The notes under the pieces were generated by a model. The model was not told where the DNA came from. It made no database searches and was given only the letters and a program-made list of their open reading frames with translations. A stretch of DNA of 64,000 bases, taken from the sequence record PP724615.1. One strand, written 5' to 3'. Positions 4,729 to 64,000 of this stretch are shown one piece after another (the first letter of the stretch is position 1; each line of letters starts with the position of its first letter). The position numbers were made by a program, and so were the translations under genes. This stretch comes from Escherichia phage HK6.

Positions 4729-5121
4729 ATGGAACAAGTATATTGGCGTCAGATTGACCCTAGTTTGGTGAAGCGTGCGGAAAAGCTGCTACAACGTTGG
4801 TTAGGGGTAAGGCAAGCCTCCTTCACTTTTCCGGAGCAGCAAACGGATGATCCCTGCATTGGCGTTTTCCTGTCTGGATATGCCGGGGAATGGGAGATGG
4901 ACTGGAATGAATTGTCAGCTATGGGTTTAATTGTTGCCCTAAACTTCTCTATATTCCATCCACGTGGTTTGGCCATATGTCGCGTGCCTGATGACGGTTG
5001 TTCGCCCCATCTTTTACAGGTGGAAAATGATATTTGGGAGTACACTCCAGATATTCTCGCAGAAGCTAAAGAACAATTAAATCGTGTTGGGATTTATGTT
5101 CCGGGATTAAATGATGAATAA
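4729..5121 (+). CDS. hypothetical protein, paralog B of a tandem pair, 130 aa
   Basis: AGGAGG RBS; sequence similarity to ORF 4291-4719 (DDPCIGVFL, MGLIVALN, GIYVPGLND). Confidence 0.6.
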   Translation: MEQVYWRQIDPSLVKRAEKLLQRWLGVRQASFTFPEQQTDDPCIGVFLSGYAGEWEMDWNELSAMGLIVALNFSIFHPRGLAICRVPDDGCSPHLLQVENDIWEYTPDILAEAKEQLNRVGIYVPGLNDE

Positions 5122-5308
5122 GGAATTTTGGAAAATAAAAGGGAAGATTTCTAAGTGGAATACTACAGGGAAAATTAGTAAGTCTCTAGAGATAGAGATA
5201 GCTAGAATGTTTACTGATCCTAATTTTGATATAGAAAAACTAAGCAAAGTAGATGCTAAAAAAGTAGATAAGTATATAGAAGAGATTAGAAGTATTTTAA
5301 GTGTCTAA
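5111..5308 (+). CDS. hypothetical Lys-rich protein, 65 aa
   Basis: ORF overlapping the upstream stop; followed by an intrinsic terminator. Confidence 0.45.
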   Translation: MMNKEFWKIKGKISKWNTTGKISKSLEIEIARMFTDPNFDIEKLSKVDAKKVDKYIEEIRSILSV

Positions 5309-5315
5309 TCCACGT

Positions 5316-5342
5316 AACCGAGTCATTTTGGCTCGGTTTTAT
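5316..5342 (+). terminator. rho-independent terminator
   Basis: Hairpin CCGAGTCATTTTGGCTCGG followed by TTTT. Confidence 0.55.
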
Positions 5343-5384
5343 CCGTACTCAAGACCAATGATAGCACCATCCGGAAAATTTTAC

Positions 5385-5413
5385 TTGCAGGATGCCCAAA
5401 ATCTTGATATAAT
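5385..5413 (+). promoter_or_regulatory. sigma70-type promoter (TTGCAG-17-TATAAT)
   Basis: -35 TTGCAG 5385-5390, -10 TATAAT 5408-5413, followed by ATTTATATTGAATTGAGAGA resembling the downstream element of the other early promoters. Confidence 0.45.
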
Positions 5414-5911
5414 ATTTATATTGAATTGAGAGACATTAGTAAAAATTGATTTTGCTAATTTTTCTTGTTTACAATCCGCGATACGGAACAGTTAGGCTGC
5501 CCCATTAAGGGTTGTTTTAACTGTTACGTGTTAGTTTTTAAACAAATAGTTAATAGAATACTTAGCGATCTACATCCCGTAGGAACCCTGGTAAGGCCTC
5601 GAAGCAACCTAGTGTGAGGTGGTTGTGAAGTGAGACGGGAAGAGTGAAAAACTCTGAGAAGTGATGACGTAAGGTATACTGCATCTAGTATGAGCTAGTA
5701 CATGAAGCATTAGGTGAGCAAATCTGGCTTAGCGGCCATCCTCAAGGATTTGTGCGGTATAGTGAAGCGGCAGTGTAGCGTGAAAGGGGAAGTTGCCACC
5801 CCCCTTCAGTATTTGCGATTAATTGTTGAGAAATTGACAGTAACAGTTGTTCTATTCTTTCTGAATAGTCCTAAAGAAAACTTATTTCATTTCCAACACA
5901 GGAGTATTGTT

Positions 5912-8701
5912 GTGTTCTCAATCCTACAAGGTCATGCAGGATTTCATCGCGACTTAGCCACAGGCATTTGGCGAGAAGTTAAAGCAGAAGACTATCTTTT
6001 TGCTAAAAGATTTTCCTCAAAGCATCCTGAAGGTAAACCAGCTTCAATGCCCTTCAAGTTTGATGTAATTGATGAAGTTGATCCTCAAACCCTAGTAGAA
6101 ATGCTCCCTCTTATGAGACGTTTAACGTCTGACCCTCATATCGTTGCGGTACGAGGTCGATGTCTTGCACCCAAAAATAACGTGCGGCGTAAGAAGGGCA
6201 ACTTTAATGTATCTAACCCAAGTCATATAATTGCATTGGACGTGGATGGTATTGTAGATACAGGTGGTTGTAACAAGTTTGATCTTGTTGGCATGGCTCG
6301 ACATATTATTAGGATGTTAAATAGTATTAGTGAGGATATGTTTCCTCTTGATGCAGGGTTTATTGCTCATGCATCGTCTTCGGCTGGGCTAAAACCAGGT
6401 ATCCGAATGCACTTAATACTAGAATCTAATGTTAAAGTAACTCAGGGTCAAATCAAATTCTTATTTACATCTATCAACGAAAGTAGTAGACAAAAGTATG
6501 GCTTTGATATTGCCGACTTAGCTTATTACTCTTCCGTACAGCTCCATTATTTTGCAGATCCGTTATTTACCGATGGTATAGTAGATCCGTTTAAAGCGGA
6601 GGGTGCCTCACGTCTGGTATTTGTTAAGGGTTCTAAAGTAAATTTACCTAATAATCTGGTTGACTATGAAACAACTAGAGGTGAGTTTAAAGAGGAGTTC
6701 TACTCTTTACTCGACCAAATTAAGGGTAAAAAAGCTGCCTCTGATAAAGTAGAGGAAACTATCAGCGAACTAGAAGAAGCTGAGGATGGAGTGTACCTAC
6801 GTATTATACCTAAACTCTATCATAGAGCTTTGGAGGATGGTGTTGATTTTGCATGGCTAGAAAAAGAAATCCGTCCAGCCTTATCAGAATATATTGCAAC
6901 TAAAGATAATAGTCGCAATATTCAAGATTACTTTAATAACGGTCGTAAGCAGGCTCTAAAAGCATTTGTTAATAATTCTAAACGTGATATACCTGATGTT
7001 TTAAAAGGTATTCCACTTAAAAAGCTAGAAACTAACTCTCTAGAAACTGATAACTTCTTGAAATTAAATACTGTACCACCAGAAGGTTATATGACTTTTG
7101 TAAAAGCAAGTCTAGGTACAGGTAAAACTACGGCGGTTGTGCGTTGGTTAGATTCAGGAGTTATTAAAGGTAATTTCTTAGCAATTACCAATACTCGAGC
7201 ACTGGTATCTTCAAATGCTAAGAAATTTAGTGCAGGACAATATGATAAGTCTGTAGATATGCTTAATTTTAAGCGTGGCGCTATTGACCGTATGTCCACA
7301 ACTATACATTCTTTGCATAAGTTCAAGAGTTTTATTGGTCAAATTGATGCAATCTTTATCGATGAATGTGATGCTGTAATGAATGACCTATTATTCGCCC
7401 CGGTTGTTAAACAACGTCGTGAATGTATTCAGGTTCTTCGGGATATTCTTGCAACTGCAAAAATCATTATATTATCTGATGGGGATATTAGTGCAGAAAC
7501 AATTGAAGCATACGGTTCTTTGATTGAGTTTGATAAACCAGTAGCATTTTATAATCATCACCGTAAGATGCTGTCAAAAGCTCATGCTTATGAGTTCCCT
7601 GACGAATCCAGTATTTGGGTTGCACTTCAGACTTCTCTAGAGATGGGTGAGAAATCTATCCTAGTATCTGACTGTGGTCCAGATGAACTGAATGAGAAGG
7701 GCATGGCGTTGCGTCGTAATACGGGTGCGTTAGTTAAGGAAATCCACTCAAACTCTACGTCTGATGTAGATATTCGACGTATTCTGGATTACACAACTAA
7801 TGAGTTAATTGACCAACAAATTGATTGCTTATTATGTAGCCCATCCGTAACGAGCGGTGTTGACTTTAACTATTTTGATAACGTATTCGTTATTACTAGG
7901 ACCAGTAACCAAGCGCCAAACATGCGTTTTCAAGCAATCAGGCGCGACCGTGGCGCTCAGAACATTTATTATTTTATTGATAAATCTACGAGTGGATTCT
8001 CCGCAGGTTCTGAGCAATATAACATTGACGAGGGTTGGCTGGAGTTAGCACAGCAATTATACGCACGTCGCAGAGAGCTGGAATCTAGGAACTATACTAG
8101 TACTTTACGTTACTATTTGCTTGATCAGGGTGCAACTATTGATATTTTCAGTGAAAGCTGGGGAACTATCGAAGGTGCGGGGAAAGAATATACAGAAGAG
8201 CGAATCAAAGCCATTTTGTATTCAACCCCTGATTATTGTGCTCCACGCCATGCAGATGCGTATGAAGCTAAACTACTTCTTGTACGCTATTATCATCTTG
8301 AGTCTATTAAAGATGTAACAGTTGAGCATGTTGAACAATATATCAAGGATAAACCGAATGATCGAGCTGCATTCTTCCATAAGATGCACGAGATGTTCTG
8401 GGAAGATATTAAGAAGTGTTCAAATGTCACTATCAAACCATTCATAGAAGCTCTGAAAGGTAAGAAGAAAGATTTCTTCCTTAAAACAGGTCAGAGTGCT
8501 AACCCAAAATATGCAAGAATGTATCTTGGTATGATGGGTATTGGTAAGGATATGAACACGGAGAATATTGTAGACTGGTACAGAACCTATTGTAAAATCG
8601 AGTGTATGCCAATCCCATATAAGTTTATGACTGATGAGGAGAAACATATGCATGATGAAGCAATGGCAGAGCTAGGTGCTAGAAATGACAGTGAAGAATA
8701 A
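5912..8701 (+). CDS. replication-associated P-loop helicase (replication-origin-binding-protein-like), ~930 aa
   Basis: Walker A ASLGTGKTTAV, Walker B IFIDECDAV and later LLCSPSVTSGVDF; proposed start is GTG 5912 with AGGAG 7 nt upstream; the track start at 5714 is an in-frame GTG without RBS, and ATG 6047 is an alternative. Confidence 0.6.
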   Translation: MFSILQGHAGFHRDLATGIWREVKAEDYLFAKRFSSKHPEGKPASMPFKFDVIDEVDPQTLVEMLPLMRRLTSDPHIVAVRGRCLAPKNNVRRKKGNFNVSNPSHIIALDVDGIVDTGGCNKFDLVGMARHIIRMLNSISEDMFPLDAGFIAHASSSAGLKPGIRMHLILESNVKVTQGQIKFLFTSINESSRQKYGFDIADLAYYSSVQLHYFADPLFTDGIVDPFKAEGASRLVFVKGSKVNLPNNLVDYETTRGEFKEEFYSLLDQIKGKKAASDKVEETISELEEAEDGVYLRIIPKLYHRALEDGVDFAWLEKEIRPALSEYIATKDNSRNIQDYFNNGRKQALKAFVNNSKRDIPDVLKGIPLKKLETNSLETDNFLKLNTVPPEGYMTFVKASLGTGKTTAVVRWLDSGVIKGNFLAITNTRALVSSNAKKFSAGQYDKSVDMLNFKRGAIDRMSTTIHSLHKFKSFIGQIDAIFIDECDAVMNDLLFAPVVKQRRECIQVLRDILATAKIIILSDGDISAETIEAYGSLIEFDKPVAFYNHHRKMLSKAHAYEFPDESSIWVALQTSLEMGEKSILVSDCGPDELNEKGMALRRNTGALVKEIHSNSTSDVDIRRILDYTTNELIDQQIDCLLCSPSVTSGVDFNYFDNVFVITRTSNQAPNMRFQAIRRDRGAQNIYYFIDKSTSGFSAGSEQYNIDEGWLELAQQLYARRRELESRNYTSTLRYYLLDQGATIDIFSESWGTIEGAGKEYTEERIKAILYSTPDYCAPRHADAYEAKLLLVRYYHLESIKDVTVEHVEQYIKDKPNDRAAFFHKMHEMFWEDIKKCSNVTIKPFIEALKGKKKDFFLKTGQSANPKYARMYLGMMGIGKDMNTENIVDWYRTYCKIECMPIPYKFMTDEEKHMHDEAMAELGARNDSEE

Positions 8702-8918
8702 AAAATGGGAAACAAGGAAGTTCCCAGTAAAAGAACGTAAAGTTCCTGTTTACGACACTTCGGAAAAGCTATGTAGGGTAGTACCGCATAGATTAGCTGG
8801 CATCCCTAACATATCCGAGTGGTTACTTAAACAACGGAAAACAAACGTGTCTCTTCGTATCGGCTTTGAGTTAGATAAAGTCTACGCTGAACTTGCTTCT
8901 TTGCTCAAGGAATCGTAA
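8676..8918 (+). CDS. hypothetical protein, 80 aa
   Basis: ORF overlapping the 3' end of the helicase gene; start uncertain. Confidence 0.35.
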   Translation: MLEMTVKNKKWETRKFPVKERKVPVYDTSEKLCRVVPHRLAGIPNISEWLLKQRKTNVSLRIGFELDKVYAELASLLKES

Positions 8919-8986: not shown

Positions 8987-9691
8987 ATGGCTGGTTCTCG
9001 CAGAAAGAAACATATCCATGAAATCCCGGATGAAGTCTTTAAAAAGGTTATAGAGCATCTGGAGAACGGTGGTACTAAGAAAGCAGCATGTGAAATGCTC
9101 GGCGTATCATCCAATCCAACTATGGAAAGGATGATTGAAGAATGGCAAGACCGCCAGATTCAAGTTGCCGAAATGAAGAAAAAGAAACGTGGTACACTCA
9201 TTGAAGGCATTGAGTTAGCTAACGTTATTGAGCAGTATTTATCTGGTGATTCTTTTGAAGAAATTGCCGATCGTAATTATCGCTCTGTAGCAATGGTCAA
9301 ATCAGTTTTGGAACGCTATGGTGCTTTACTTCGTTTGAACGATATTGTAGACCCATTGAATCCTCCAATTATTCCTGATGATGCTGTAGCAGAAGAATTT
9401 GCAGTTGGTGAGCTTGTTTGGGTTCCTGGATACCAGTGTATAGGCGAAATCAAAAAGGCAATGGATAATCCTGTAGGTTGCTACCGTGTATGGCTTCTAT
9501 CGGAAGGCAAACAACAGAACGTCCATTATATGAATTACGAGCTGGCCTCTGTTAAACATCTGGAAAAATTAGGGGTTGACGTAAAATCTCTAGGGTACAA
9601 GTGGACTCGTGAAGAAGTAATTTCATTAATTAATGAAGCTGTTAAGGCTGCCTTGAAACTTGATAAAGAAAAAGGAAAACGCCGTGAGTAG
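8987..9691 (+). CDS. putative HTH DNA-binding protein, 234 aa
   Basis: Directly downstream of the PN25-type promoter with GAGAGGAG RBS; N-terminal HTH-like segment GGTKKAACEMLGVSSNPTMERMIEEW. Confidence 0.55.
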   Translation: MAGSRRKKHIHEIPDEVFKKVIEHLENGGTKKAACEMLGVSSNPTMERMIEEWQDRQIQVAEMKKKKRGTLIEGIELANVIEQYLSGDSFEEIADRNYRSVAMVKSVLERYGALLRLNDIVDPLNPPIIPDDAVAEEFAVGELVWVPGYQCIGEIKKAMDNPVGCYRVWLLSEGKQQNVHYMNYELASVKHLEKLGVDVKSLGYKWTREEVISLINEAVKAALKLDKEKGKRRE

Positions 9692-14296: not shown

Positions 14297-15769
14297 ATGA
14301 CCTTGTTTAACGTGCAAGCTGTAGTGTTGAAGATGCTTCTCGCTTCCGAACAGAAGCAAATAGCATTGGAAACATTCTCAAAACTGCATAAAGATCATTT
14401 TAATGACGCTTTCTCCTCAATTTACCAAGCCGTCCAGAATTATTATAAAAAATATAACACAATGCCGTCCATTGACGCACTTATGCTTGAAGCTAATAGG
14501 AACGCCCGCCTTTCTCAAGCTCTAGTCGTCTTAGCTAACACTCAAATTCCAGAAGTGAGCATGGAACAGGCACTTGAAGTCCTAGAGGCCGAATATACAC
14601 AGGATTTATTCCTGAAGCTTCTAGAAACAGACGTGCTTCAAGATTTAACAATGCTGGATCAGGGAGAAATTCTCAACCGAGTTGCCTCCCTTCACTTAAA
14701 ATTAGAAGAGAAAGTAACGAATACTGGAAAAGTATTCAACGCAGATAACATGCGTATTTTCCAGAGAGAAGAAGATACCAAACTGAACTTAATCGCTCTT
14801 GGTATTTGTAATGAGTTCGACGCTCAAATTGGTTTAGCTCGCACAGAAACGTTACTGCTTGGTGGTTGGCGTGGTACTGGTAAATCCATTATCTGTTCAA
14901 ACATACAGGTTCAGCAATATTTGAATGGGGATATTGCTCCATACTTCTCAATTGAGATGAAAGAACATGAAGTATTTAGACGTAATCTAGCCATGTTAGC
15001 TGGTGTATCAGCATTAGCAATGCGTAATAATACTCTAGAAGGTGCAGCTCTATTAAGATTAGCCAGAACTAGAGCTAGAATGTTTAATGGTGGTGAAGAG
15101 CTTTTCGATAACTTCGTTAAACAGTACACAATGGCTAAGATGAGTGATTTCTACGATATGGAGAGTAAACTAATAGAAGGGTATGAGCTACATACTCCTA
15201 TGATTATTGTTTATGACCCTGAGCTGTCTATTACAACAGTTGACGTAGAATTAAATAAATTAGTTGCTAGATATGGAGATAAAGTTACAGTAGCTTTACT
15301 GGACTATATTAACCAAACCCGACTTCCAGATTCTAAAACCATTGATATGTATGACTGGAAAGAACAGATGGTTGTTAGCTCGTCTTTCAAATCTATCTGC
15401 CAGAAACATAACGTGGCTGGTGTAGCTCCTTACCAGATCGATCAAGATGGTAGAACACGTATGTCAAAGGGGATTCTTGATTCCGCAGACATGGCTGCTA
15501 ATCTTAATGCTGCAAAAGCTGATAATGGTCAAGGTGCTATTATGTTTGACTTCGTTAAGACTCGTTCTTCTGATAGCGTGAAGTTTATGCCTAAAATGAA
15601 CTGGGAAACTCTGCGAATGGATAACACTACCAACCTAGCAATGGAAGATATATCTCAAATGGAAGCTGAGTTCGTTATCCCTATTGAGAAGGATAAGCCG
15701 GCTCAACCTAAACGTGCTAAGAAAGACAAAACTGAAAATTCAACAGGTGAACAGGCCAGCGATATATGA
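14297..15769 (+). CDS. DnaB-family replicative helicase, ~490 aa
   Basis: Walker A GGWRGTGKS followed by FSIEM (DnaB H1a), Walker B VALLDYINQ, and PYQIDQ; ATG 14297 with AGGAG RBS (track start 14246 lies inside the terminator). Confidence 0.75.
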   Translation: MTLFNVQAVVLKMLLASEQKQIALETFSKLHKDHFNDAFSSIYQAVQNYYKKYNTMPSIDALMLEANRNARLSQALVVLANTQIPEVSMEQALEVLEAEYTQDLFLKLLETDVLQDLTMLDQGEILNRVASLHLKLEEKVTNTGKVFNADNMRIFQREEDTKLNLIALGICNEFDAQIGLARTETLLLGGWRGTGKSIICSNIQVQQYLNGDIAPYFSIEMKEHEVFRRNLAMLAGVSALAMRNNTLEGAALLRLARTRARMFNGGEELFDNFVKQYTMAKMSDFYDMESKLIEGYELHTPMIIVYDPELSITTVDVELNKLVARYGDKVTVALLDYINQTRLPDSKTIDMYDWKEQMVVSSSFKSICQKHNVAGVAPYQIDQDGRTRMSKGILDSADMAANLNAAKADNGQGAIMFDFVKTRSSDSVKFMPKMNWETLRMDNTTNLAMEDISQMEAEFVIPIEKDKPAQPKRAKKDKTENSTGEQASDI

Positions 15770-57055: not shown

Positions 57056-58726
57056 TTATGCGAAAAATTTGCCGTTTTTAAAGTCAATCAAAGTGCGCTG
57101 CCCGTTGGCGTATGTAATTAAATGCGTTTGCGTCCAGCTTGACGCGCCAACGTTATAGCCCATATCTAGGGAACCAGCGACGCCCGCTGTGTATACGCCG
57201 CCGTATATGCTGGCGGTGTGGGTGTGCCCCGTGTTTAACTTGCCCAATTTCTTAAACTGTTTAGGATTGCCACGGCTGCCGTTAATGCCGTTGTGACCGT
57301 GTACGCCGCACTCAATGCCTGCAATTTTAAATGATTGGTCAGTGGTCAGGAAAATCGCGTTAAACTCGCAACCTGCAACCGTACGCAGCGCATAATCTAG
57401 CACGTTGAAAGTATCGTCATGATTACCGATTGCCGCGTAAATCGCAGCATTAAGGCGGTGATATAGTTCCGCATTGGCTGGATCGTCTTTAATGTTAGCA
57501 TTACGATCATCAAGCCAACGAGATAACGCCAGATCGTGGTTTGATTCGACAATGATCGTTTGACTAAAATCGCGCTCCATTGACTCCAGCACGCGCCCGG
57601 TGTCGATGAGATCATCCAGAACCTTATCACGTCCGGCTGCATACTGTTTCGCTAGAAATACACCTGAAGCGCGGTTGTGATGGTTGCGTGATGTAAAATC
57701 ATGCACGTCATGCACAAACTGATATTTTGGCTTGAGAATATCCACTAGCCCATAAGTATCACCGTGCCCCCATGACGCAGCGGCGCACTCCTCATCTAAT
57801 TTTTCAGCGTGTACGTCGCCATACTGCAAGCCTAAAACATGCCCCGACGTTTCAAAACATCCGGCGGGGGTCGCGCAAATATTCAGATCGTAAAACATGC
57901 CGCTTTCGTCCATCGTTTCAAGCTGGCGAACAAAAAATTCCCCGTCCTCGTCGAACTCAACAATCAGCGCGCCGTAATTATGCAATGCTTCAGCTTTTTG
58001 CCCTGCTTTCTGCTGAATGTAGTTTTTAAGTGTTGCCGTTCCGGTTGAGTACATGCGGCGCACTACTTCACCTTTGAGAGCTGGTACGCTTTCTGCGGTG
58101 ATTTTAGCGTGACCAATTGCCAGACCTTCAATATTCAAAGCCGTTGCAGTTTCTGCAAATCCAGACAGCGGATAGTCTGCGGTCGGTAGTACGTTAATTT
58201 CAGCCATGAAAGCGAAACGGCGGTTATTTAAAAACACGTTCTTATTGCAGATATATTTGTCAAAAGCGGAATCATATTTTACACCGTCTGCGCCTTCCCC
58301 ATTCTGGAATCCGTTTTTGTTATAAATATACTTAGAAACAAGCAAATCAGCGCCGATAAATTGGGCGTATTGCTCCAACGCGGCTAAAAAGTTTTTATGC
58401 GGGAAAGTATTATTCTGAATCGATGTAATAATAAAGCGTTTACCTTGTTTTACTTCCCACTGTTCCACCGTGCTAGAAATAATTCCAGCCGCTTCGGGGC
58501 GCTCGTCGTTTTTGATAGCTTTTACAGCTTTCGCCGCTTTTGGTTTTGCTGGTTTATTTGCTTCTAACCAATCACAAATCGCGGTCGAGTGTTTCGTTGT
58601 ATCGTAGACCGCTTTTGAAATATCGTCGCAGACTTCCAGCTTAGTAGCGCGCAGACGTTTACCATAGAAATTAAAGTCAGCGGCCAGCTTCAGGATAACG
58701 GTTTGTTTTTCTGCGGAAATAATCAT
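57056..58726 (-). CDS. A1: A1-like pre-early protein, calcineurin-like metallophosphoesterase, 556 aa
   Basis: Phosphoesterase motifs GDVHAE, GDTYGLVD, VESNHD, GHTHT; 556 aa equals the size I recall for T5 A1; location in the pre-early-type block. Confidence 0.6.
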   Translation of the reverse strand: MIISAEKQTVILKLAADFNFYGKRLRATKLEVCDDISKAVYDTTKHSTAICDWLEANKPAKPKAAKAVKAIKNDERPEAAGIISSTVEQWEVKQGKRFIITSIQNNTFPHKNFLAALEQYAQFIGADLLVSKYIYNKNGFQNGEGADGVKYDSAFDKYICNKNVFLNNRRFAFMAEINVLPTADYPLSGFAETATALNIEGLAIGHAKITAESVPALKGEVVRRMYSTGTATLKNYIQQKAGQKAEALHNYGALIVEFDEDGEFFVRQLETMDESGMFYDLNICATPAGCFETSGHVLGLQYGDVHAEKLDEECAAASWGHGDTYGLVDILKPKYQFVHDVHDFTSRNHHNRASGVFLAKQYAAGRDKVLDDLIDTGRVLESMERDFSQTIIVESNHDLALSRWLDDRNANIKDDPANAELYHRLNAAIYAAIGNHDDTFNVLDYALRTVAGCEFNAIFLTTDQSFKIAGIECGVHGHNGINGSRGNPKQFKKLGKLNTGHTHTASIYGGVYTAGVAGSLDMGYNVGASSWTQTHLITYANGQRTLIDFKNGKFFA

Positions 58727-59078: not shown

Positions 59079-59486
59079 TTATTCACCTGCGGCCTGCTTT
59101 ACTTCATCGGCAACGCCCAATAATTGCGCCACAGCGTCCAATGTTTCTAATTTCGCGCTTTCAAGGCTTGCCAGATCATCGGCGTCCTTGATAATGCCGG
59201 AATCGATGGCATGTTTTGCAATTACTCGCACGTAATGAGCTTTACGGATTGAGCTGCCGCCGCCTACTTTGCGCGGCTTGTCGCTTTTCTGATAGGCTTT
59301 CGCGCTGGTCAATTTCGAACGAACTGACACGGGAGAAGCCGCGCCCACTGCCTTTGCGATCTCTTTCAAGCCGTCGCTGTTTGCGAATTCTAGCCCGTTT
59401 TCATTGATTAACTGCTGATACATGGAAACAGCCTGCTGAGTGTTTTCTTCGTTCCAGGAAAATTTTGCGGCTTTAACGTTAGTCAT
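59079..59486 (-). CDS. A2: A2-like pre-early protein, 135 aa
   Basis: Size (~15 kDa) and position downstream of A1 in the pre-early-type operon; conserved TTAATTGGAGTT element before ATG. Confidence 0.45.
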   Translation of the reverse strand: MTNVKAAKFSWNEENTQQAVSMYQQLINENGLEFANSDGLKEIAKAVGAASPVSVRSKLTSAKAYQKSDKPRKVGGGSSIRKAHYVRVIAKHAIDSGIIKDADDLASLESAKLETLDAVAQLLGVADEVKQAAGE

Positions 59487-59587
59487 GGTAAAAACTCCAA
59501 TTAATTTAATTTAAGGGATTAAATGATTAACATAATGTTAATCGTTATATGCCCCGAACTACTGGGGCATATAAAGTTAACACTATA

Positions 59588-59839
59588 TTATAAAACGGCT
59601 TCCCATTTTTCGTTGCGTTGAACAACCTTTACAACGTCGCCAGATTTAACGCGAACGCTAAAAACGGTTTTTCCGTTGTTACTGCGCTCATTTTCAGCGT
59701 ATACCGCGTCAATTGTATCGAACGGCATGAGCGCCGCGCCTTTAATACGTTCGGCTTTTCCGGTTAATTCATCCGTTTTAGTAACGAAAGGAATAAAAAC
59801 GGATTGACCAACTTTCGGCGCATTAATAACGTTTTTCAT
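59588..59839 (-). CDS. hypothetical pre-early protein, 83 aa
   Basis: ORF with ACCGGAGTT element 11 nt upstream of ATG, same operon and orientation. Confidence 0.5.
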   Translation of the reverse strand: MKNVINAPKVGQSVFIPFVTKTDELTGKAERIKGAALMPFDTIDAVYAENERSNNGKTVFSVRVKSGDVVKVVQRNEKWEAVL

Positions 59840-60274
59840 GGTATAAACTCCGGTTTATTTAGTGGATTGTTCCGCATTATCTGCTACTTTCTAGCAGATA
59901 ATAAGAAAAAATCCGCTCGCCATTATAAAATCAATTTAAGGAACTCCACGCGGGCCGCTATATCCCAGTTAGGGGGCGGGATGCATTATGGTAAGCACCG
60001 ACCGTCAAATTGTATCAAGTTATCGCTCTTATCGAACTGGGTACATCTTAAAGCCTATCGGCTAGGGTGTCAAATAGTTTTTTCGTTTTCTTTTAAGTTA
60101 GGATTTTCCCAACTGAATATCATTTCGCAAAATATTTTCCCATCTTTATGATGGTAAGCTATTTCGCTTCCGTGGTTCGCGCAAAAACTGATCACTGCTT
60201 CAGCTTGTTCTACCGTGATATTGTTAGCCGTTTCTTTGATTTTCATATCGTCGATTCCTTATATATAATAGATA

Positions 60275-60334
60275 AGTTTACCGCCGATAGGCTTTAAGAT
60301 ATACCCAATTTTTAAAGAGCGCGGCGGTAAACTT
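60275..60334. repeat. 13-bp perfect inverted repeat separated by 34 bp
   Basis: AAGTTTACCGCCG (60275-60287) and CGGCGGTAAACTT (60322-60334). Confidence 0.6.
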
Positions 60335-60952
60335 CCCGCCGTGTAGTTCGTCATTGCCGCCCTACGAGATAAATAATAACAAACAACGAAAAAGGCGCAA
60401 CCTTATATTTGTAAAGAAATGTAAAGACAAACGCCACCGGACACCATGCGGCGGGCTGGGCGCGGCGGCCCAAAATTAAAAGAAACGGGCGCGCGAATAC
60501 CACAAAACAAAGCAGATAGGCAAGTAATTTTTTTTATTTATATTTGCTTTGCCCTACTTGACAAAACCTAAAAAGCTCGTGGCAGCGATAAACGGCTTAT
60601 CCCCTTATGATGGGATGGCTAAAAACTTTACTGCGTTCTGGGGCGTTTTAGGCCGCCTATTATCGACTTAACAAATCATTAACAAAAGCAAAATTGAAAA
60701 ATAGTTGTAAAAGGTCTTGACTTTTAAAAATCAAGGGGCGTTGCGTTAATTTATTAAATAAAATATTTGACTTTTATTTGTTAGTATGCATCGGAAGGAT
60801 AGCAGACTAATAATTGCTAGGATGATAATCATGCTGGTGGATTGTAACGGCCTGAATTATTAGCAGACTATTAATCACGGAAAATCTCATTAGCCAACTA
60901 ACTATTTCATGATATATAATATACTTATAAATTAATGAGAAATAATAAATAT

Positions 60953-61060
60953 ATGAAATCATCACCATTATAATAATAACTATATGAAATCATCACCGTT
61001 ATAATAATAACTATAAGAAATTATCACCATTATAATAATAACGATAAGAAACTATCGGCA
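60953..61060. repeat. 31-bp direct repeats, about 3.5 tandem copies
   Basis: ATGAAATCATCACCATTATAATAATAACTAT / ATGAAATCATCACCGTTATAATAATAACTAT / AAGAAATTATCACCATTATAATAATAACGAT / degenerate fourth copy. Confidence 0.8.
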
Positions 61061-61085
61061 TAAGTGAGAACCACTATCATTTAAG

Positions 61086-61106
61086 TTATCCACAACGTTA
61101 TCCACA
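61086..61106. promoter_or_regulatory. two tandem consensus DnaA boxes
   Basis: TTATCCACA at 61086-61094 and 61098-61106, matching the TTATNCACA consensus. Confidence 0.6.
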
Positions 61107-61152
61107 GCACAAAATAACTTGACACAATAGGCGGCGATATGGGGACTTTTGC

Positions 61153-61195
61153 ACAGACTTATCCACAGGTTATTCCACTGTATAAATATACAGGG
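61153..61195. repeat. left copy of a 43-bp inverted repeat (DnaA box + SOS-box-like palindrome)
   Basis: ACAGACTTATCCACAGGTTATTCCACTGTATAAATATACAG: DnaA box 61159-61167, CTGT-N8-ACAG palindrome 61178-61193; ~39/43 identical to the reverse complement of 63947-63990. Confidence 0.65.
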
Positions 61196-61459
61196 TAGAA
61201 AGATAGTGTTAACGACTGCAATCAATTTTAAGCGGCCTAAAACGCTTTCTAACGAGCTAAACGCTGCGGGGCAATATTAAAGTAAAGACCCAACGCGTCG
61301 GCCTGGTGGCCTCATCGTGTTTTGCTCTTTACTACACCGCTGCGCGGTTAGCATAAAACTAGGCGTTAGGCAAGGAAAATAAAAAAGTAAAATAATCTTT
61401 GCCTATGCTAGAAAATTACCCTTATCATTCACTCACCGATTAACGAGAGGGCCGAACAA

Positions 61460-62452
61460 ATGAGGCTATATAAACCAGATAACGCAACCGTCTTAAAAGG
61501 TGCGCTGCGTAACCTGCTGGATGGTAGCAGAACAACCAGCATCCGGCATTTTGTTTTCAATATTGAAACTATTCATCAAAACTTTTTTGATGAATATGAT
61601 GCTTATAATATGAATAGTTTTCTACCGTTATATAAGCAAGGGGCAACGCTTGTTTTGTATAATCAGGATTATCAATTGCTCACTAGTCGGGGGCCGGATA
61701 CTGATTTCATAATTGTAAAAGGCAACACAGTAAAAGCCTATGATACTGGGGCGAGCTTAGAAGTTTTTTCAATAGAAAACTATGAGGCCAATGATAATGA
61801 TCTTTATGACGTAGAAAATTTTCTTGATTCATTTTGGCGTTATTTATCAGTTGGCTGGAATCGGTCGGATTCTGATGGGTATCGTTTTGCGGCTATAATG
61901 GCCTTTGATGATAACGGTAATTTTTTGCTACCGTCGGAACTATACCCGTATGTTTATAATGATCTGATACAGGAAGCCGGTTTTACTTTCTGGAAAGATG
62001 AAAATCAGCCTATTGACAATATAGAAAAACATGCTGTAAATTCTAACACTCAAAGCGTTATCGCTCAAACTACTGAAAATAAAGGAAAAAACACCATGAC
62101 CAAGATTGCTAACATCGTTGCCGCTAATAAATCCGCCGTTGTAAACGCTGCAAAACTGGAAGCGGGTAAAATTGCACTAACTCAAATCACGAAAGTAGCG
62201 GCTAAAAAAGCGCCGTTCATGATCAAAGGCTATATTGATACGCCGATTGGTCGCGTAGTGATCGCTAACCTGCTGAGTGTAGCGGTTGACCAGTACGCCC
62301 CGAGTAATCAAAAAGCGAAAGCGGTAGCGGGGGCGGCTATGGAAGCGGCAATGTTGGAAATGGTGCAAAGTTTTAACATCGCTGAGATGATCGATGAAAT
62401 GGTAAAAGGTATCGATATTTCTACTTTTACCAATAACACCGAAAACGAGTAA
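61460..62452 (+). CDS. hypothetical protein, 330 aa
   Basis: ORF with GAGAGGG RBS; first gene inside the inverted-repeat-bracketed segment; no motif. Confidence 0.55.
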   Translation: MRLYKPDNATVLKGALRNLLDGSRTTSIRHFVFNIETIHQNFFDEYDAYNMNSFLPLYKQGATLVLYNQDYQLLTSRGPDTDFIIVKGNTVKAYDTGASLEVFSIENYEANDNDLYDVENFLDSFWRYLSVGWNRSDSDGYRFAAIMAFDDNGNFLLPSELYPYVYNDLIQEAGFTFWKDENQPIDNIEKHAVNSNTQSVIAQTTENKGKNTMTKIANIVAANKSAVVNAAKLEAGKIALTQITKVAAKKAPFMIKGYIDTPIGRVVIANLLSVAVDQYAPSNQKAKAVAGAAMEAAMLEMVQSFNIAEMIDEMVKGIDISTFTNNTENE

Positions 62453-62537
62453 TAACTAGCCTATTGTAAAGTTTTGTAAAGGTCGCCTTTTATGGTGGCC
62501 TTTTTTGTTATAATGCCTTTACACCGTTTGAGGACGG

Positions 62538-62801
62538 TTGAAAATTTTCCCAAAATTTTGGAGGCTTATAATGGTTGCTTTTTCTTCTTCTGACGCTCTT
62601 TTCACTGGTAAAGGCTGGGTATCAAATCGCTGGATTATTCAGGAAATGGTGCAAGAATACGGCATTGCTAAAACTTATACTACCATTCAGGCGCTTTATG
62701 ATAATGATCAAATCGATCAGCAAACGGCGGGCTTTTTACTGGATACCCTGAAAGCGGAACATTGCACCGAAAAGCAAGCCGCCAAAATTGTTTTAATGTA
62801 A
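62538..62801 (+). CDS. hypothetical protein, 87 aa (start uncertain)
   Basis: ORF followed by a hairpin (GGGGCGATACTTTCGCCCC) at 62811-62829. Confidence 0.4.
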   Translation: MKIFPKFWRLIMVAFSSSDALFTGKGWVSNRWIIQEMVQEYGIAKTYTTIQALYDNDQIDQQTAGFLLDTLKAEHCTEKQAAKIVLM

Positions 62802-62850
62802 TTAATAACGGGGCGATACTTTCGCCCCGATAACTAGGGGAGTATTAAAA

Positions 62851-63000
62851 ATGGTTATTTTTCAAGCTTTTTTAGCGGGTATCTTGGGCGCTATCTTATC
62901 GTTGTTTGCAATAGCTTTCGACGTTCACGCGGTTATTATTGGCGCGGGTATCGCTGTATTTTCTTATCTGCTGGGCTGCATGACTAGTAAAGGAGAATAA
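62851..63000 (+). CDS. small hydrophobic membrane peptide, 49 aa
   Basis: ATG 62851 with AGGGGAG RBS; product MVIFQAFLAGILGAILSLFAIAFDVHAVIIGAGIAVFSYLLGCMTSKGE; below the track threshold. Confidence 0.35.
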   Translation: MVIFQAFLAGILGAILSLFAIAFDVHAVIIGAGIAVFSYLLGCMTSKGE

Positions 63001-63002
63001 AA

Positions 63003-63215
63003 ATGATCCGCAACGTTTCTCTTGCACGTTCGAAAGGTTTTAAGCTGGTGGATGTTAACACGTTCGAGCGTCCAGACTGTAAAATCGAATATGTAGCACG
63101 TAATAAAAATGCCTTTCGTGTTACTGAAAAGAAATTCGACAAGCGCGGCAACGTGGTCACTGAAACGGTTAAATATTTTGCCACCTTTTACGCTGCATTT
63201 CGTGGGGTACTATGA
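63003..63215 (+). CDS. hypothetical protein, 70 aa
   Basis: ORF with AAAGGAGAA RBS supplied by the 3' end of the preceding small ORF. Confidence 0.5.
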   Translation: MIRNVSLARSKGFKLVDVNTFERPDCKIEYVARNKNAFRVTEKKFDKRGNVVTETVKYFATFYAAFRGVL

Positions 63216-63337
63216 AAAGCGTTATTGTTGTTCTCCTTGCAATGGCTGGCGGTTTTATCGCCACCTTATTTAAGAATGACCCCGTTTCGCTGGGGATCTT
63301 TATGCTTTTATCGGGCTATCTGATCGGGAGGCTATAA
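63212..63337 (+). CDS. small hydrophobic membrane peptide, 41 aa
   Basis: ATG overlapping the upstream stop (ATGA); product MKSVIVVLLAMAGGFIATLFKNDPVSLGIFMLLSGYLIGRL; below the track threshold. Confidence 0.35.
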   Translation: MKSVIVVLLAMAGGFIATLFKNDPVSLGIFMLLSGYLIGRL

Positions 63338-63338
63338 A

Positions 63339-63683
63339 ATGATCATTTACGAGGGAAATCGCTTTGTTGCTAACTGCCGCCCGGCATTATTAGCAAACTA
63401 TTTGAATCAGCTTTCCCCAGCTTATAAGGGCGTTATTAATATTTATGAGGGCAAGGCGCATTATAAAATCAATGCGGTCGTTGCCCGTGAACTAGCGTTT
63501 CAATTTTTAACCTTCGCATCTTGTGATATTCAGGTCATGGGTGAGGCGTTAATTGCAGAAAATGAGGATGATTTTATTAATATTTTTCGCAAGATATGCA
63601 CCGAGCGCCTGATAATCAAAGGCGCATATATTCAATCCACGGCCGATAGTATTGAAACAGCGTTTCGAAAGGTGGCGCAATAA
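63339..63683 (+). CDS. hypothetical protein, 114 aa
   Basis: ORF with GGGAGG RBS, translationally coupled to the preceding peptide gene. Confidence 0.5.
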   Translation: MIIYEGNRFVANCRPALLANYLNQLSPAYKGVINIYEGKAHYKINAVVARELAFQFLTFASCDIQVMGEALIAENEDDFINIFRKICTERLIIKGAYIQSTADSIETAFRKVAQ

Positions 63684-63946
63684 GATTATATAATCACGGG
63701 GCGCAACTATCGAGAAGTGCCCCCAATTTTCAAATGATAATCATTCTCATTTGACCGCGCCCGCGATGGTTAGCCTGCTAATGGTTAGGGTGTTACGTGT
63801 CGCCTTGTGTGATCGTTAGCGAGCTAACTAATTTTCAAGCCTCCTCCAATTTTGCCCTTGTTTTAGTATCCCCACCAAAATTAAACGCGTTAGAATGCGT
63901 TTGAGAGCGTTTTAACGCTATATTAGAACTATTCACTGCGTAGGAA

Positions 63947-63990
63947 TACTGTATATTTATACAGTAGGATAAGCTGTGGATAAGTCTGTT
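63947..63990. repeat. right copy of the 43-bp inverted repeat (SOS-box-like palindrome + DnaA box, opposite orientation)
   Basis: TACTGTATATTTATACAGTA (CTGT-N8-ACAG) at 63947-63966 and TGTGGATAA (reverse DnaA box) at 63975-63983. Confidence 0.65.
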
Positions 63991-64000
63991 AATAACGCCT

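Follow-up and report, generated by a model that had tools for sequence, protein, structure and literature searches.

Inverted repeats with paired DnaA boxes and LexA-like dyads in the first-step-transfer region of Escherichia phage HK6 as candidate docking sites for host proteins

Background

What is the role of two inverted repeats in the genome of Escherichia phage HK6, each of which carries DnaA boxes next to a dyad resembling an SOS box of the host, and what is the segment of about 2.75 kb between them? We addressed these questions in a window of 64,000 nucleotides (sequence record PP724615.1), which is the whole stretch of DNA analysed here and the frame of all HK6 coordinates given below. 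For about 60 years it has been asked what stops the entry of T5 DNA at 8%. In T5 the distal arm is placed a little to the left of the 7.9% point at which first-step DNA transfer stops, and the arrangements IRC-spacer-IRD and IRD'-spacer-IRC', with their paired DnaA boxes, have been proposed to be the injection-stop signal (Davison, bioRxiv 10.1101/866236); Heusterspreute et al. 1987 and Wang et al. 2005 are among the works cited there for the repeats. The injection-stop role is a hypothesis even for T5 itself, and papers of 2023 and 2026 still describe the transfer mechanism of T5 as poorly understood and its repeats and DnaA boxes as awaiting experiment.

Results

The repeat region and its counterpart in T5

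Our alignments identify the 57-64 kb part of the window as the first-step-transfer (FST) region, within the terminal repeat, of a T5-like phage, beside A1 and A2, both of which are adjacent to the repeat region (Table 1). With 81.3% identity, positions 61063-61260 align to AY587007 6022-6219, a stretch that is annotated there as 'inverted repeat C', 'D' and 'B''. The initial annotation had pointed to a similar organisation around the T5 injection-stop region; by this alignment, the locus is that very region rather than a lookalike. The DNA is 93.5% identical to that of Salmonella phages SE11 and Spc35, and the region maps to Spc35 4962-8835, within the annotated left terminal repeat. Judged by these matches, the two repeats represent a conserved non-coding module of the terminal repeats of T5-like phages (Demerecviridae), one being its proximal and the other its distal copy, and the element is already known. 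An Rfam scan of 59500-64000 gave CrcZ alone, at 19.9 bits against a gathering score of 95, and we take this sub-threshold match to be due to chance.

A repeat search of the 64-kb window gave the two arms as an inverted repeat of 41 nt, 93% complementary, with 2755 nt between them; over the 43-nt span of the initial annotation, for which an identity of about 90% had been given, we counted 38 matches out of 43 (88%). Both arms point inward around a rightward pre-early operon, and each reads, from outside to inside, as a DnaA-box pair, a spacer with TTGACA and another DnaA-box pair, followed at a distance of about one helical turn by a 20-bp dyad. The window does stop near the right copy, as had been remarked, but its end falls inside the right arm and not beyond it: in Spc35, T5 and other relatives this arm runs on into a spacer and a second DnaA-box pair, IRC'.

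A consensus scan (TTWTNCACA) located DnaA boxes at 61086, 61098, 61147 and 61159 on the forward strand and at 63975 on the reverse strand, bearing out the earlier report of boxes in both copies and of two more at 61086-61106. The whole window has eight matches against a chance expectation of 7.15, and five of the eight lie within the two short arm stretches. Two boxes had been overlooked, namely TTTTGCACA at 61147 and, with one mismatch, TTATTAACA at 63987-63995 on the reverse strand; once these are added, all the visible DnaA boxes fall into pairs with a 3-bp gap. There are two such pairs per arm, the second pair of the right arm lying outside the window. The 3-bp spacing of the paired boxes and the variable distance between the arms agree with the published description.

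Table 1. Features of the HK6 repeat region (positions in the 64,000-nt window)
Feature	Position	Strand	Remark
A1	57056-58726	-	adjacent to repeat region
A2	59079-59486	-	adjacent to repeat region
AT-rich tandem repeat, 31 bp x 3.6 copies	60941-61051	.	TRF: period 31, 92% matches; directly left of left arm
Left-arm DnaA-box pair TTATCCACA-ACG-TTATCCACA	61086-61106	+	orthologue of T5 'inverted repeat C', aligns to AY587007 6022-6060
TTGACA within spacer	61120-61125	+	
Second left-arm DnaA-box pair TTTTGCACA-GAC-TTATCCACA	61147-61167	+	boxes at 61147 and 61159
Left arm of 41-nt inverted repeat	61153-61193	+	orthologue of T5 'inverted repeat D' (AY587007 6112-6152)
Left LexA-like box CACTGTATAAATATACAGGG	61176-61195	.	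16/20 consensus matches; 20.87 bits
Inner-flank motif CCTAAAACGCTTTCTAACGAG, left arm	61236-61256	+	overlaps position of T5 'inverted repeat B''
DUF7566 protein, equivalent to T5 011	61460-62452	+	
76-aa protein, equivalent to T5 013	62571-62801	+	
49-aa hydrophobic peptide, equivalent to T5 014	62851-63000	+	
T5.015-type Ung-dependent abasic-site nickase	63003-63215	+	
41-aa hydrophobic peptide	63212-63337	+	
114-aa protein, equivalent to T5 016	63339-63683	+	
Inner-flank motif GCGTTAAAACGCTCTCAAACGCATTCTAACGCGTTTAAT, right arm	63881-63918	-	reverse-strand reading
Right LexA-like box TACTGTATATTTATACAGTA	63947-63966	.	19/20 consensus matches; 25.96 bits; orthologue of T5 'palindrome D' (AY587007 9330-9349)
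Right arm of 41-nt inverted repeat	63949-63989	-	orthologue of T5 'inverted repeat D'' (AY587007 9332-9372)
Right-arm DnaA-box pair TTATTAACA (one mismatch)-GAC-TTATCCACA	63975-63995	-	boxes at 63975 and 63987; spacer and IRC' pair past window end

LexA-like dyads

The palindrome CTGT-N8-ACAG is found at 61178-61193 and 63949-63964, and the window has five matches in total where 0.73 are expected. We scored the dyads with a LexA weight matrix made from 12 E. coli K-12 operators, each verified at its own promoter in NC_000913; the scoring index derived from these 12 operators is equivalent to the heterology index of Lewis 1994. The likeness to the LexA consensus reported in the initial annotation is strong by this measure. 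The verified operators range from 16.8 to 24.3 bits and the right phage box (26.0) exceeds all 12 of them, while the third-ranked site in the window has 16.05 bits and the best score over 200 shuffles of the window is 19.9 bits, below both phage boxes. In sequence, both boxes have what is expected of a LexA operator, i.e. CTGT-N8-ACAG, an AT-rich centre and an operator-range score.

Among 64 unique arms of close relatives, the distal boxes score 23.6-26.0 bits and the proximal ones 17.9-26.0 bits, ACAA replaces ACAG in four proximal arms, and the LexA-like box is about one helical turn from the DnaA boxes in all 64. In a set of 22 different phage boxes the core T and G never vary, the core C hardly does and the centre is variable, with a correlation of r = 0.63 between the per-position information of these boxes and that of the E. 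coli operators. LexA-like and DnaA boxes also occur together in Klebsiella Sugarlandvirus, Pectobacterium DU_PP_V and Vibrio ValDsh2, and likewise in Proteus phage 1, Vibrio D386 and Vibrio Bennett, whose A1 proteins have no more than 32-42% identity. Other flanking sequence has mostly diverged in these Klebsiella, Pectobacterium, Vibrio and Proteus relatives; a motif akin to the inner-flank motif CCTAAAACGCTTTCTAACGAG adjoins the LexA-like boxes in distant relatives. In Aliivibrio phage HNL01 (A1 40% identical), no DnaA-box cluster and no LexA-like box lie near A1, and the genes are arranged differently. The alphaproteobacterial Rhizobium phage RHEph02 was considered for a host-tracking comparison and set aside as uninformative, since its A1-like gene is in an Autographivirus replication module without the T5-like layout. 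The compared hosts are all Gammaproteobacteria with one LexA motif, which gives no contrast for a tracking of the host by the box. Our analysis suggests that palindrome D is a near-perfect LexA-type site kept across the phage family, which is possibly a new point; we found no reading of it as a LexA operator in the literature searched.

Conservation of the module

Of 46 related phage loci that were compared, 44 have both arms, at a fixed position by A2, and no empty site without both arms was seen among these relatives. The multiple alignment is gap-free over the C arm, spacer, D arm and dyad. The TTGAC of the spacer is kept in 63 of 64 unique arms, with exact TTGACA in 56. Between the proximal and the distal consensus, 33 of 39 positions are the same in the C arm and 42 of 46 in the stretch of D arm and dyad, but only 22 of 43 in the spacer. 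As far as the sequences indicate, selection is on the motifs and not on the repeat as a whole. The D arm as a whole is highly conserved in the close relatives, so that the dyad is no more conserved than its neighbours in that set.

The bracketed operon

The six forward ORFs at 61460-63683 form the rightward pre-early operon between the arms, and include the two small hydrophobic peptides (49 and 41 aa) already listed in the initial annotation. All six match T5 pre-early families, and no transposase, integrase or invertase domain was found in them. A comparison with relatives, as had been proposed, does show the bracketed segment to be variable: it covers 1.5-4.6 kb, with gene gain and loss and a flipped orientation in some genera. 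In Sugarlandvirus-like phages and DU_PP_V the operon is inverted relative to A1/A2 with the arms still inward-facing, and the box position is unchanged even there. No orientation polymorphism was seen among 39 Tequintavirus- and Epseptimavirus-like loci. The proximal inner flank of Sugarlandvirus resembles the distal inner flank of T5 (alignment score 45-55 vs 23); as a guide to the inversion breakpoints, this similarity indicates a swap on one side and is ambiguous on the other because of a motif common to both flanks.

Deletion of hegG to 017 leaves a T5 mutant that is viable but has small plaques, and we infer from the gene order of AY587007 that the deletion takes out IRC and IRD. 'Type 4' T5-like phages are without IRC and IRD entirely (Davison, bioRxiv 10.1101/866236). 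This mutant and these phages mark the proximal arm as accessory; we take the operon to be accessory too, and the distal arm to be the copy that counts. The 2.75 kb between the arms is an ordinary, variable and dispensable pre-early operon (T5 genes 011-016/017), and very probably neither a mobile cassette nor an origin.

Discussion

The reading that we favour, and consider probable, is that the two repeats are a T5-like module whose arms would serve in cis as sites at which host proteins dock on the DNA as it enters. DnaA, as proposed by Davison, and LexA, which is added here, are both in the uninfected cell and would dock on the arms. The nucleoprotein complex on the first-entering DNA would help hold, pause or organise the FST DNA until A1 and A2 are made, and we speculate that LexA could leave its site once the A1-driven degradation of host DNA activates RecA. 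Host-factor control of the region, one of the suggestions of the initial annotation, appears plausible. That host LexA and DnaA indeed bind the arms on the first-injected DNA, and that this binding is functionally selected, we put forward only tentatively and with more doubt than conviction. The motif stays at the host consensus despite diverging phage proteins, which points to a host reader. In A2 mutants the host DNA is degraded and second-step transfer fails, and hence LexA cleavage alone cannot lift the block. It is also noted that proteins binding DNA inside the cell have no obvious way to halt DNA transfer, which counts against the docking view.

Phage proteins might be the readers instead, be it an A2 dimer or, following Davison, a palindrome-cutting A1/A2 nuclease that restarts transfer, with the LexA match being incidental. 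A2 is a dimeric DNA-binding protein which is needed for second-step transfer and binds A1; it matches PHROG 1725, 'DNA binding protein', its model is all-helical with two three-helix bundles and weak fold matches to HTH, homeodomain and Myb, and PalD is among the candidate cleavage palindromes of Davison. Looked at as a possible LexA-like winged-helix protein, A2 had no PDB sequence match and no significant fold match. We nevertheless consider phage-encoded readers unlikely. None of the fold matches reaches significance (best E-value 0.35, on a model from a single sequence with pLDDT 75), and the literature searched does not describe A2 as binding any specific sequence. If the reader came from the phage, it and its site should have changed in step, whereas the dyad is at the host LexA consensus where A1 has fallen to the low identity given above. 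By what is established for LexA, a box with 19 of 20 consensus positions should, moreover, bind it regardless. The repeats could also matter as DNA, through pairing or recombination, through a cruciform or 'knot' that blocks transfer, as in the 'Gordian knot' idea of Davison, or as substrates for inverting the operon. The flipped operon between inward-facing arms and the resemblance of the Sugarlandvirus proximal flank to the T5 distal flank speak for such a role. However, the proximal and distal spacers have diverged and the protein-type motifs alone are kept, which speaks against homogenisation still going on and against selection for pairing over a long range; the Vibrio and Proteus boxes do not stay palindromic at the centre of the dyad, the 39 loci of the closer genera have a single orientation, and the second inner-flank comparison is ambiguous. 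We regard this role as improbable.

Could the boxes be classical SOS operators, at which LexA, up to SOS induction, represses a promoter of the pre-early operon or else a promoter within the arm that is antisense or points outward? They are operator-grade in sequence, the left one is upstream of the operon, and a weak minus-strand promoter-like match puts its -10 hexamer within the left dyad. The -35 of this match is not kept in T5, however, and the promoter-like matches in the region number 12 against 10.5 +/- 3.6 in shuffles. No conserved -35/-10 pair was found at the box, and in both arm classes the near-invariant TTGACA is without a -10 hexamer at 16-19 bp. The first ORF is 267 bp downstream of the left box, and the promoter of T5 gene 011, experimentally characterised just upstream of that gene, is annotated at 6331-6420 of AY587007, about 180 bp past IRD; neither box overlaps or adjoins a promoter that it would repress. 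The right box is downstream of the operon, the position of the box is kept where the operon is inverted, and it is established T5 biology that the pre-early genes are expressed immediately in uninduced cells. The classical operator role has, in our judgement, little probability, and even less is left for an oriC-like origin or a mobile-insertion remnant, both of which had been suggested in the initial annotation. The DnaA-box cluster does adjoin the AT-rich 31-bp tandem repeat, and the inverted repeats do bracket a segment of variable content. But the T5 origins, as cited by Davison (bioRxiv 10.1101/866236), were mapped near the genome centre and the replication genes are silent at the FST stage, the six ORFs are ordinary pre-early genes without any of the enzymes of a mobile element that were looked for, and the arms keep their place beside A2 with no empty site.

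If host LexA and DnaA do bind, their binding could be part of the long-sought host component of the injection stop and hand-over, and the arms could sense the A1-driven breakdown of host DNA through RecA activation and LexA cleavage, coupling it to the next infection stage. This would be the first case in which a family of virulent phages retains consensus SOS boxes as cis elements that are not part of a promoter. The repeats themselves are nothing new; palindrome D as a consensus-grade LexA-type site, from Tequintavirus to the Vibrio and Proteus phages, adds a second named host-protein candidate. Even if LexA is irrelevant, the order of DnaA pair, TTGAC, DnaA pair, one helical turn, dyad and inner motif is a conserved arrangement that any injection-stop model must explain.

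Comparison with known systems

The closest system is T5, in which C/D, D'/C' and palindrome D (AY587007; Repeat Regions 2 and 3) have the same terminal-repeat position by A2 and A1. The arms of the two phages are alignable with 81-86% identity and share the order of DnaA-box pairs, spacer, DnaA-box pairs and palindrome, as well as the inward orientation around a rightward pre-early operon. They differ in that IRC has full consensus boxes in HK6 and a small deletion in T5, and in that HK6 is without the HNH (hegG) insertion that T5 has left of IRC. The T5 dyad is named only as a palindrome, and not as a LexA site, in the literature searched.

The LexA operators of E. coli (recA, umuDC, sulA, recN, lexA, uvrA, uvrB, dinB, dinG and dinI) are 20-bp dyads, TACTGTATAT-ATATACAGTA, like the phage boxes, whose scores are within or above the operator range and whose per-position conservation profile is similar. 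Unlike the SOS boxes of E. coli, the predicted phage sites are off any recognisable or mapped promoter, in non-coding DNA of a virulent phage, and about one helical turn from DnaA boxes. In oriC, and in the chromosomal clusters datA and DARS, which do not function as origins, several consensus or near-consensus DnaA boxes lie close together in fixed phase, which resembles the arms. Davison (bioRxiv 10.1101/866236) likens the T5 DnaA boxes to oriC. The HK6 boxes differ from those of datA, DARS and oriC in coming as pairs 3 bp apart, which recur as an inverted repeat and are joined to a LexA-type dyad. Temperate phages of the GIL01 type have host SOS boxes in phage DNA, as HK6 has LexA-like ones, and in GIL01 the promoter P1 is described as repressed by LexA (PMC4551915). 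Boxes of the GIL01 type are promoter operators for the switch between lysogeny and lytic growth, whereas the T5-like phages are virulent and the putative LexA boxes of HK6 are not at a promoter.

Identity of the repeat arms

Positions 60600-64000 match 454 phage records, nearly all of them from T5-like phages of Salmonella, Escherichia and Klebsiella. SE11 and Spc35 are the best matches (93.5% identical), the best match switches along the region in a mosaic manner, and neither an identical record nor a match closer than ~93.5% was found among phage records and IMG/VR contigs. The Spc35 counterpart (4962-8835) lies within the annotated 'left TR; comprises first-step-transfer (FST) DNA'. T5 6022-6219 (AY587007) aligns with 61063-61260 at 81% identity, and the T5 sequence also has the DnaA boxes and the CTGT-N8-ACAG dyad. 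Since the T5 annotation, the alignment, and the boxes and dyad agree, we identify on sequence grounds the 43-bp repeat of the initial annotation as the T5 inverted repeats D and D' (IRD/IRD'), its two further DnaA boxes as IRC, and its SOS-like palindrome as palindrome D. The pair had been likened to the T5 injection-stop region and turns out to match the T5 repeats themselves. For the right arm, the spacer and IRC' fall beyond the window end; Spc35 and T5 show both.

Features of the HK6 window (PP724615.1) and the annotated T5 repeats (AY587007)
Feature	Position	Strand	Remarks
A1	57056-58726	-	just left of 60600-64000
A2	59079-59486	-	just left of 60600-64000
Inverted-repeat pair	60024-60062 / 60283-60321		at T5 IRA/IRA' position; brackets 58-aa ORF 60070-60246
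Inverted-repeat pair	60643-60666 / 61222-61245		at T5 IRB/IRB' position; brackets tandem repeat and left arm
AT-rich tandem repeat	60941-61051		31 bp x 3.6 copies, 92% identity; directly left of IRC DnaA-box pair, between divergent pre-early operons
DnaA boxes, TTWTNCACA	61086, 61098, 61147, 61159	+	motif scan
DnaA box, TTWTNCACA	63975	-	motif scan
DnaA box, one mismatch	63987-63995		TTATTAACA
Inverted-repeat arms	61153-61193, 63949-63989		2755 nt apart; repeat search
CTGT-N8-ACAG dyads	61178-61193, 63949-63964		pattern scan
Left LexA-like box	61176-61195		16/20 consensus matches
Right LexA-like box	63947-63966		19/20 consensus matches
TTGACA	61120-61125		spacer
Inner-flank motif	61236-61256, 63881-63918		operon-facing side of LexA-like boxes
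Six ORFs	61460-63683	+	include homologues of T5 013, 014 and 016 and a small membrane peptide
DUF7566 protein (Pfam)	61460-62452		330 aa; equivalent to T5 011
T5.015-type nickase	63003-63215		70 aa; PHROG 4227, E = 1e-49
T5 inverted repeat C	6022-6060		GenBank annotation
T5 inverted repeat D	6112-6152		GenBank annotation
T5 inverted repeat B'	6184-6209		GenBank annotation
T5 palindrome D	9330-9349		GenBank annotation
T5 inverted repeat D'	9332-9372		GenBank annotation
T5 inverted repeat C'	9424-9462		GenBank annotation

Motifs and their conservation

The inverted repeat, first put at about 90 percent identity, holds up, with the arms 93% complementary over 41 nt and 38 of 43 positions matching over the 43-nt span when counted directly. 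The window has eight consensus DnaA boxes versus 7.15 expected by chance, five of the eight within the two arm stretches, and all visible arm boxes are paired with a 3-bp gap once the one-mismatch box is counted. The dyad pattern occurs five times versus 0.73 expected. The matches at 14893, 15224 and 29281 look like chance, since they lack an AT-rich centre and score poorly for LexA (no more than 11.8 bits in the ranked list).

We scored the boxes with a symmetrised LexA weight matrix from 12 E. coli operators, each confirmed at its promoter in MG1655, which themselves reach 16.8-24.3 bits in-sample. The right and left boxes score 25.96 and 20.87 bits, while the next best site in the window has 16.05 bits and the maximum over 200 window shuffles is 19.9 bits, in agreement with the initial claim that the dyads match the LexA consensus. 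Among 64 unique arms of close relatives the distal boxes score 23.6-26.0 bits and the proximal ones 17.9-26.0 bits. The reading of palindrome D as a putative LexA site is strongly supported as a fact of sequence and as a conserved feature.

The DnaA boxes and the LexA-like box are also paired in more distant phages, where the flanking sequence has otherwise mostly diverged. Klebsiella Sugarlandvirus has TACTGTATAAATATACAGTA in both arms, Pectobacterium DU_PP_V has both kinds of box, and Vibrio ValDsh2 has CACTGTATAAATAAACAGTA (23.1 bits). The boxes of Proteus phage 1 (A1 42% identical) score 19.6 and 24.3 bits and that of Vibrio Bennett (A1 32% identical) 24.3 bits, and Vibrio D386 (A1 34% identical) has TACTGTATATCCATACAGCG and two more boxes, a neighbouring DnaA box being even reversed. 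In four genera, 9-11 bp separate the DnaA-box end from CTGT. Comparison of 22 distinct boxes shows an invariant T and G in the CTG core, with the C kept in 40/44 half-sites; the centre is variable and not maintained as a palindrome, and the information profiles of these boxes and of the E. coli operators correlate at r = 0.63. Within a genome, the proximal and distal arms agree at 33/39 and 42/46 positions in the motif segments and at only 22/43 in the spacer, so it is the motifs that are under selection and not the sameness of the repeats.

Apart from the TTGACA, proximal and distal arms have different spacers. This hexamer is common to both arm classes (exact in 56/64 aligned arms, TTGAC in 63/64), and is probably not an ordinary promoter, as no -10 hexamer is present at promoter spacing. 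The inner-flank motif, approximately CTAAAACGCTCT..TAACGC(A)TTCT.AGCG..TTTAATTT, overlaps the position of T5 inverted repeat B' and recurs in Klebsiella, Proteus and Vibrio relatives (loci L043, L046, L047, L049 and L050), sometimes abutting the box.

The bracketed operon

The six forward ORFs between the arms, two of them short hydrophobic peptides as initially noted, are by homology ordinary T5 pre-early genes. T5 gene 011 is toxic in E. coli according to a 2026 preprint, and PHROG 4227 is labelled 'endonuclease nicking abasic sites generated by host uracil glycosylase Ung' (T5.015 family).

We compared 40 IMG/VR loci anchored on A2, hence unbiased regarding the repeats, together with annotated genomes. 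Of the 46 related phage loci, 44 have both arms; the exceptions are L036, where the upstream DNA is too short, and Vibrio ValDsh2, with one BLAST hit and a degenerate second site. The bracketed segment varies in content and length (1.5-4.6 kb between arms, with genes gained and lost, e.g. DUF7566 absent in several loci). No transposase or invertase was found among the six ORFs, and with ordinary pre-early genes inside and such constant arms, the suggested remnant of an inverted-repeat-bounded insertion, or any mobile element, is unsupported.

The operon and A2 diverge in 39 Tequintavirus- and Epseptimavirus-like loci as well as in Proteus phage 1, Vibrio D386 and Vibrio Bennett. It is inverted relative to A1/A2, with the DUF7566 gene codirectional with A2, in Sugarlandvirus-like phages and DU_PP_V (L040-L043, L045, L046). 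The arms stay inward-facing in both orientations, and inner-flank similarity favours a swap, on one side only.

A T5 mutant lacking the stretch between hegG and 017 is viable but forms small plaques. By the gene order of AY587007, this interval would hold IRC and IRD, and hence the proximal arm and the operon appear dispensable.

Possible readers of the arms

Beyond the identity, anatomy, motif strength and conservation documented here, we infer that the arms probably serve as docking arrays through which host proteins would bind the DNA that enters the cell first. A phage protein, either A2 or A1/A2, is a possible reader of the dyad or the arms. A2 is a DNA-binding dimer, and its single-sequence AlphaFold model (pLDDT 75) is predicted to be all-helical with two three-helix bundles; its top fold hits in the PDB (HTH, homeodomain and Myb domains) are all non-significant, and in our searches A2 fell into no Pfam family and matched no PDB sequence. 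However, both motif types stay at the host consensus, itself invariant across Gammaproteobacteria, while the phage proteins diverge, which argues that the readers would be the host proteins DnaA and LexA. The repeats might instead matter purely at the DNA level, to which the operon inversion in Sugarlandvirus-like phages and DU_PP_V lends some support and which the spacer divergence weakens.

The distal arm is probably the important copy, given its stronger boxes, its position at the stop point and its retention when the proximal arm is lost. The LexA-like box is not positioned as an operator, with 267 bp between the left one and the first ORF downstream of it, and with the mapped promoter upstream of gene 011. 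We speculate that LexA might depart once A1-driven host DNA breakdown activates RecA, with the caveat that second-step transfer fails in A2 mutants even though these degrade host DNA (bioRxiv 10.1101/866236). The hosts compared all share one LexA motif.

Comparison with the published T5 repeats

The element is already known, and our analysis has re-discovered the described T5 repeats. Davison (bioRxiv 10.1101/866236) gives IRC-spacer-IRD and IRD'-spacer-IRC' as 131 bp, and names a 1987 paper as the first to note DnaA boxes here. The eight boxes, of DnaA or near-DnaA type, come 'always in pairs separated by 3 bp', the spacer is constant, and the arms are set a highly variable distance apart, with variable gene content in between. 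That paper argues that the injection-stop signal is the distal arm, immediately to the left of the 7.9% shear point, and proposes that membrane-bound DnaA holds the DNA at it. An origin role is rejected, T5 origins being near the genome centre and replication genes unexpressed at the first-step stage, so the origin-like element of the initial annotation is unsupported as well. Papers of 2023 and 2026 restate this description and note that experiments on the sites are lacking. 'LexA' and 'SOS' are absent from Davison's text, the literature search found no paper combining 'first step transfer' with LexA, and LexA goes unmentioned in the T5/Demerecviridae papers searched. This LexA reading is what our analysis adds to the known element.
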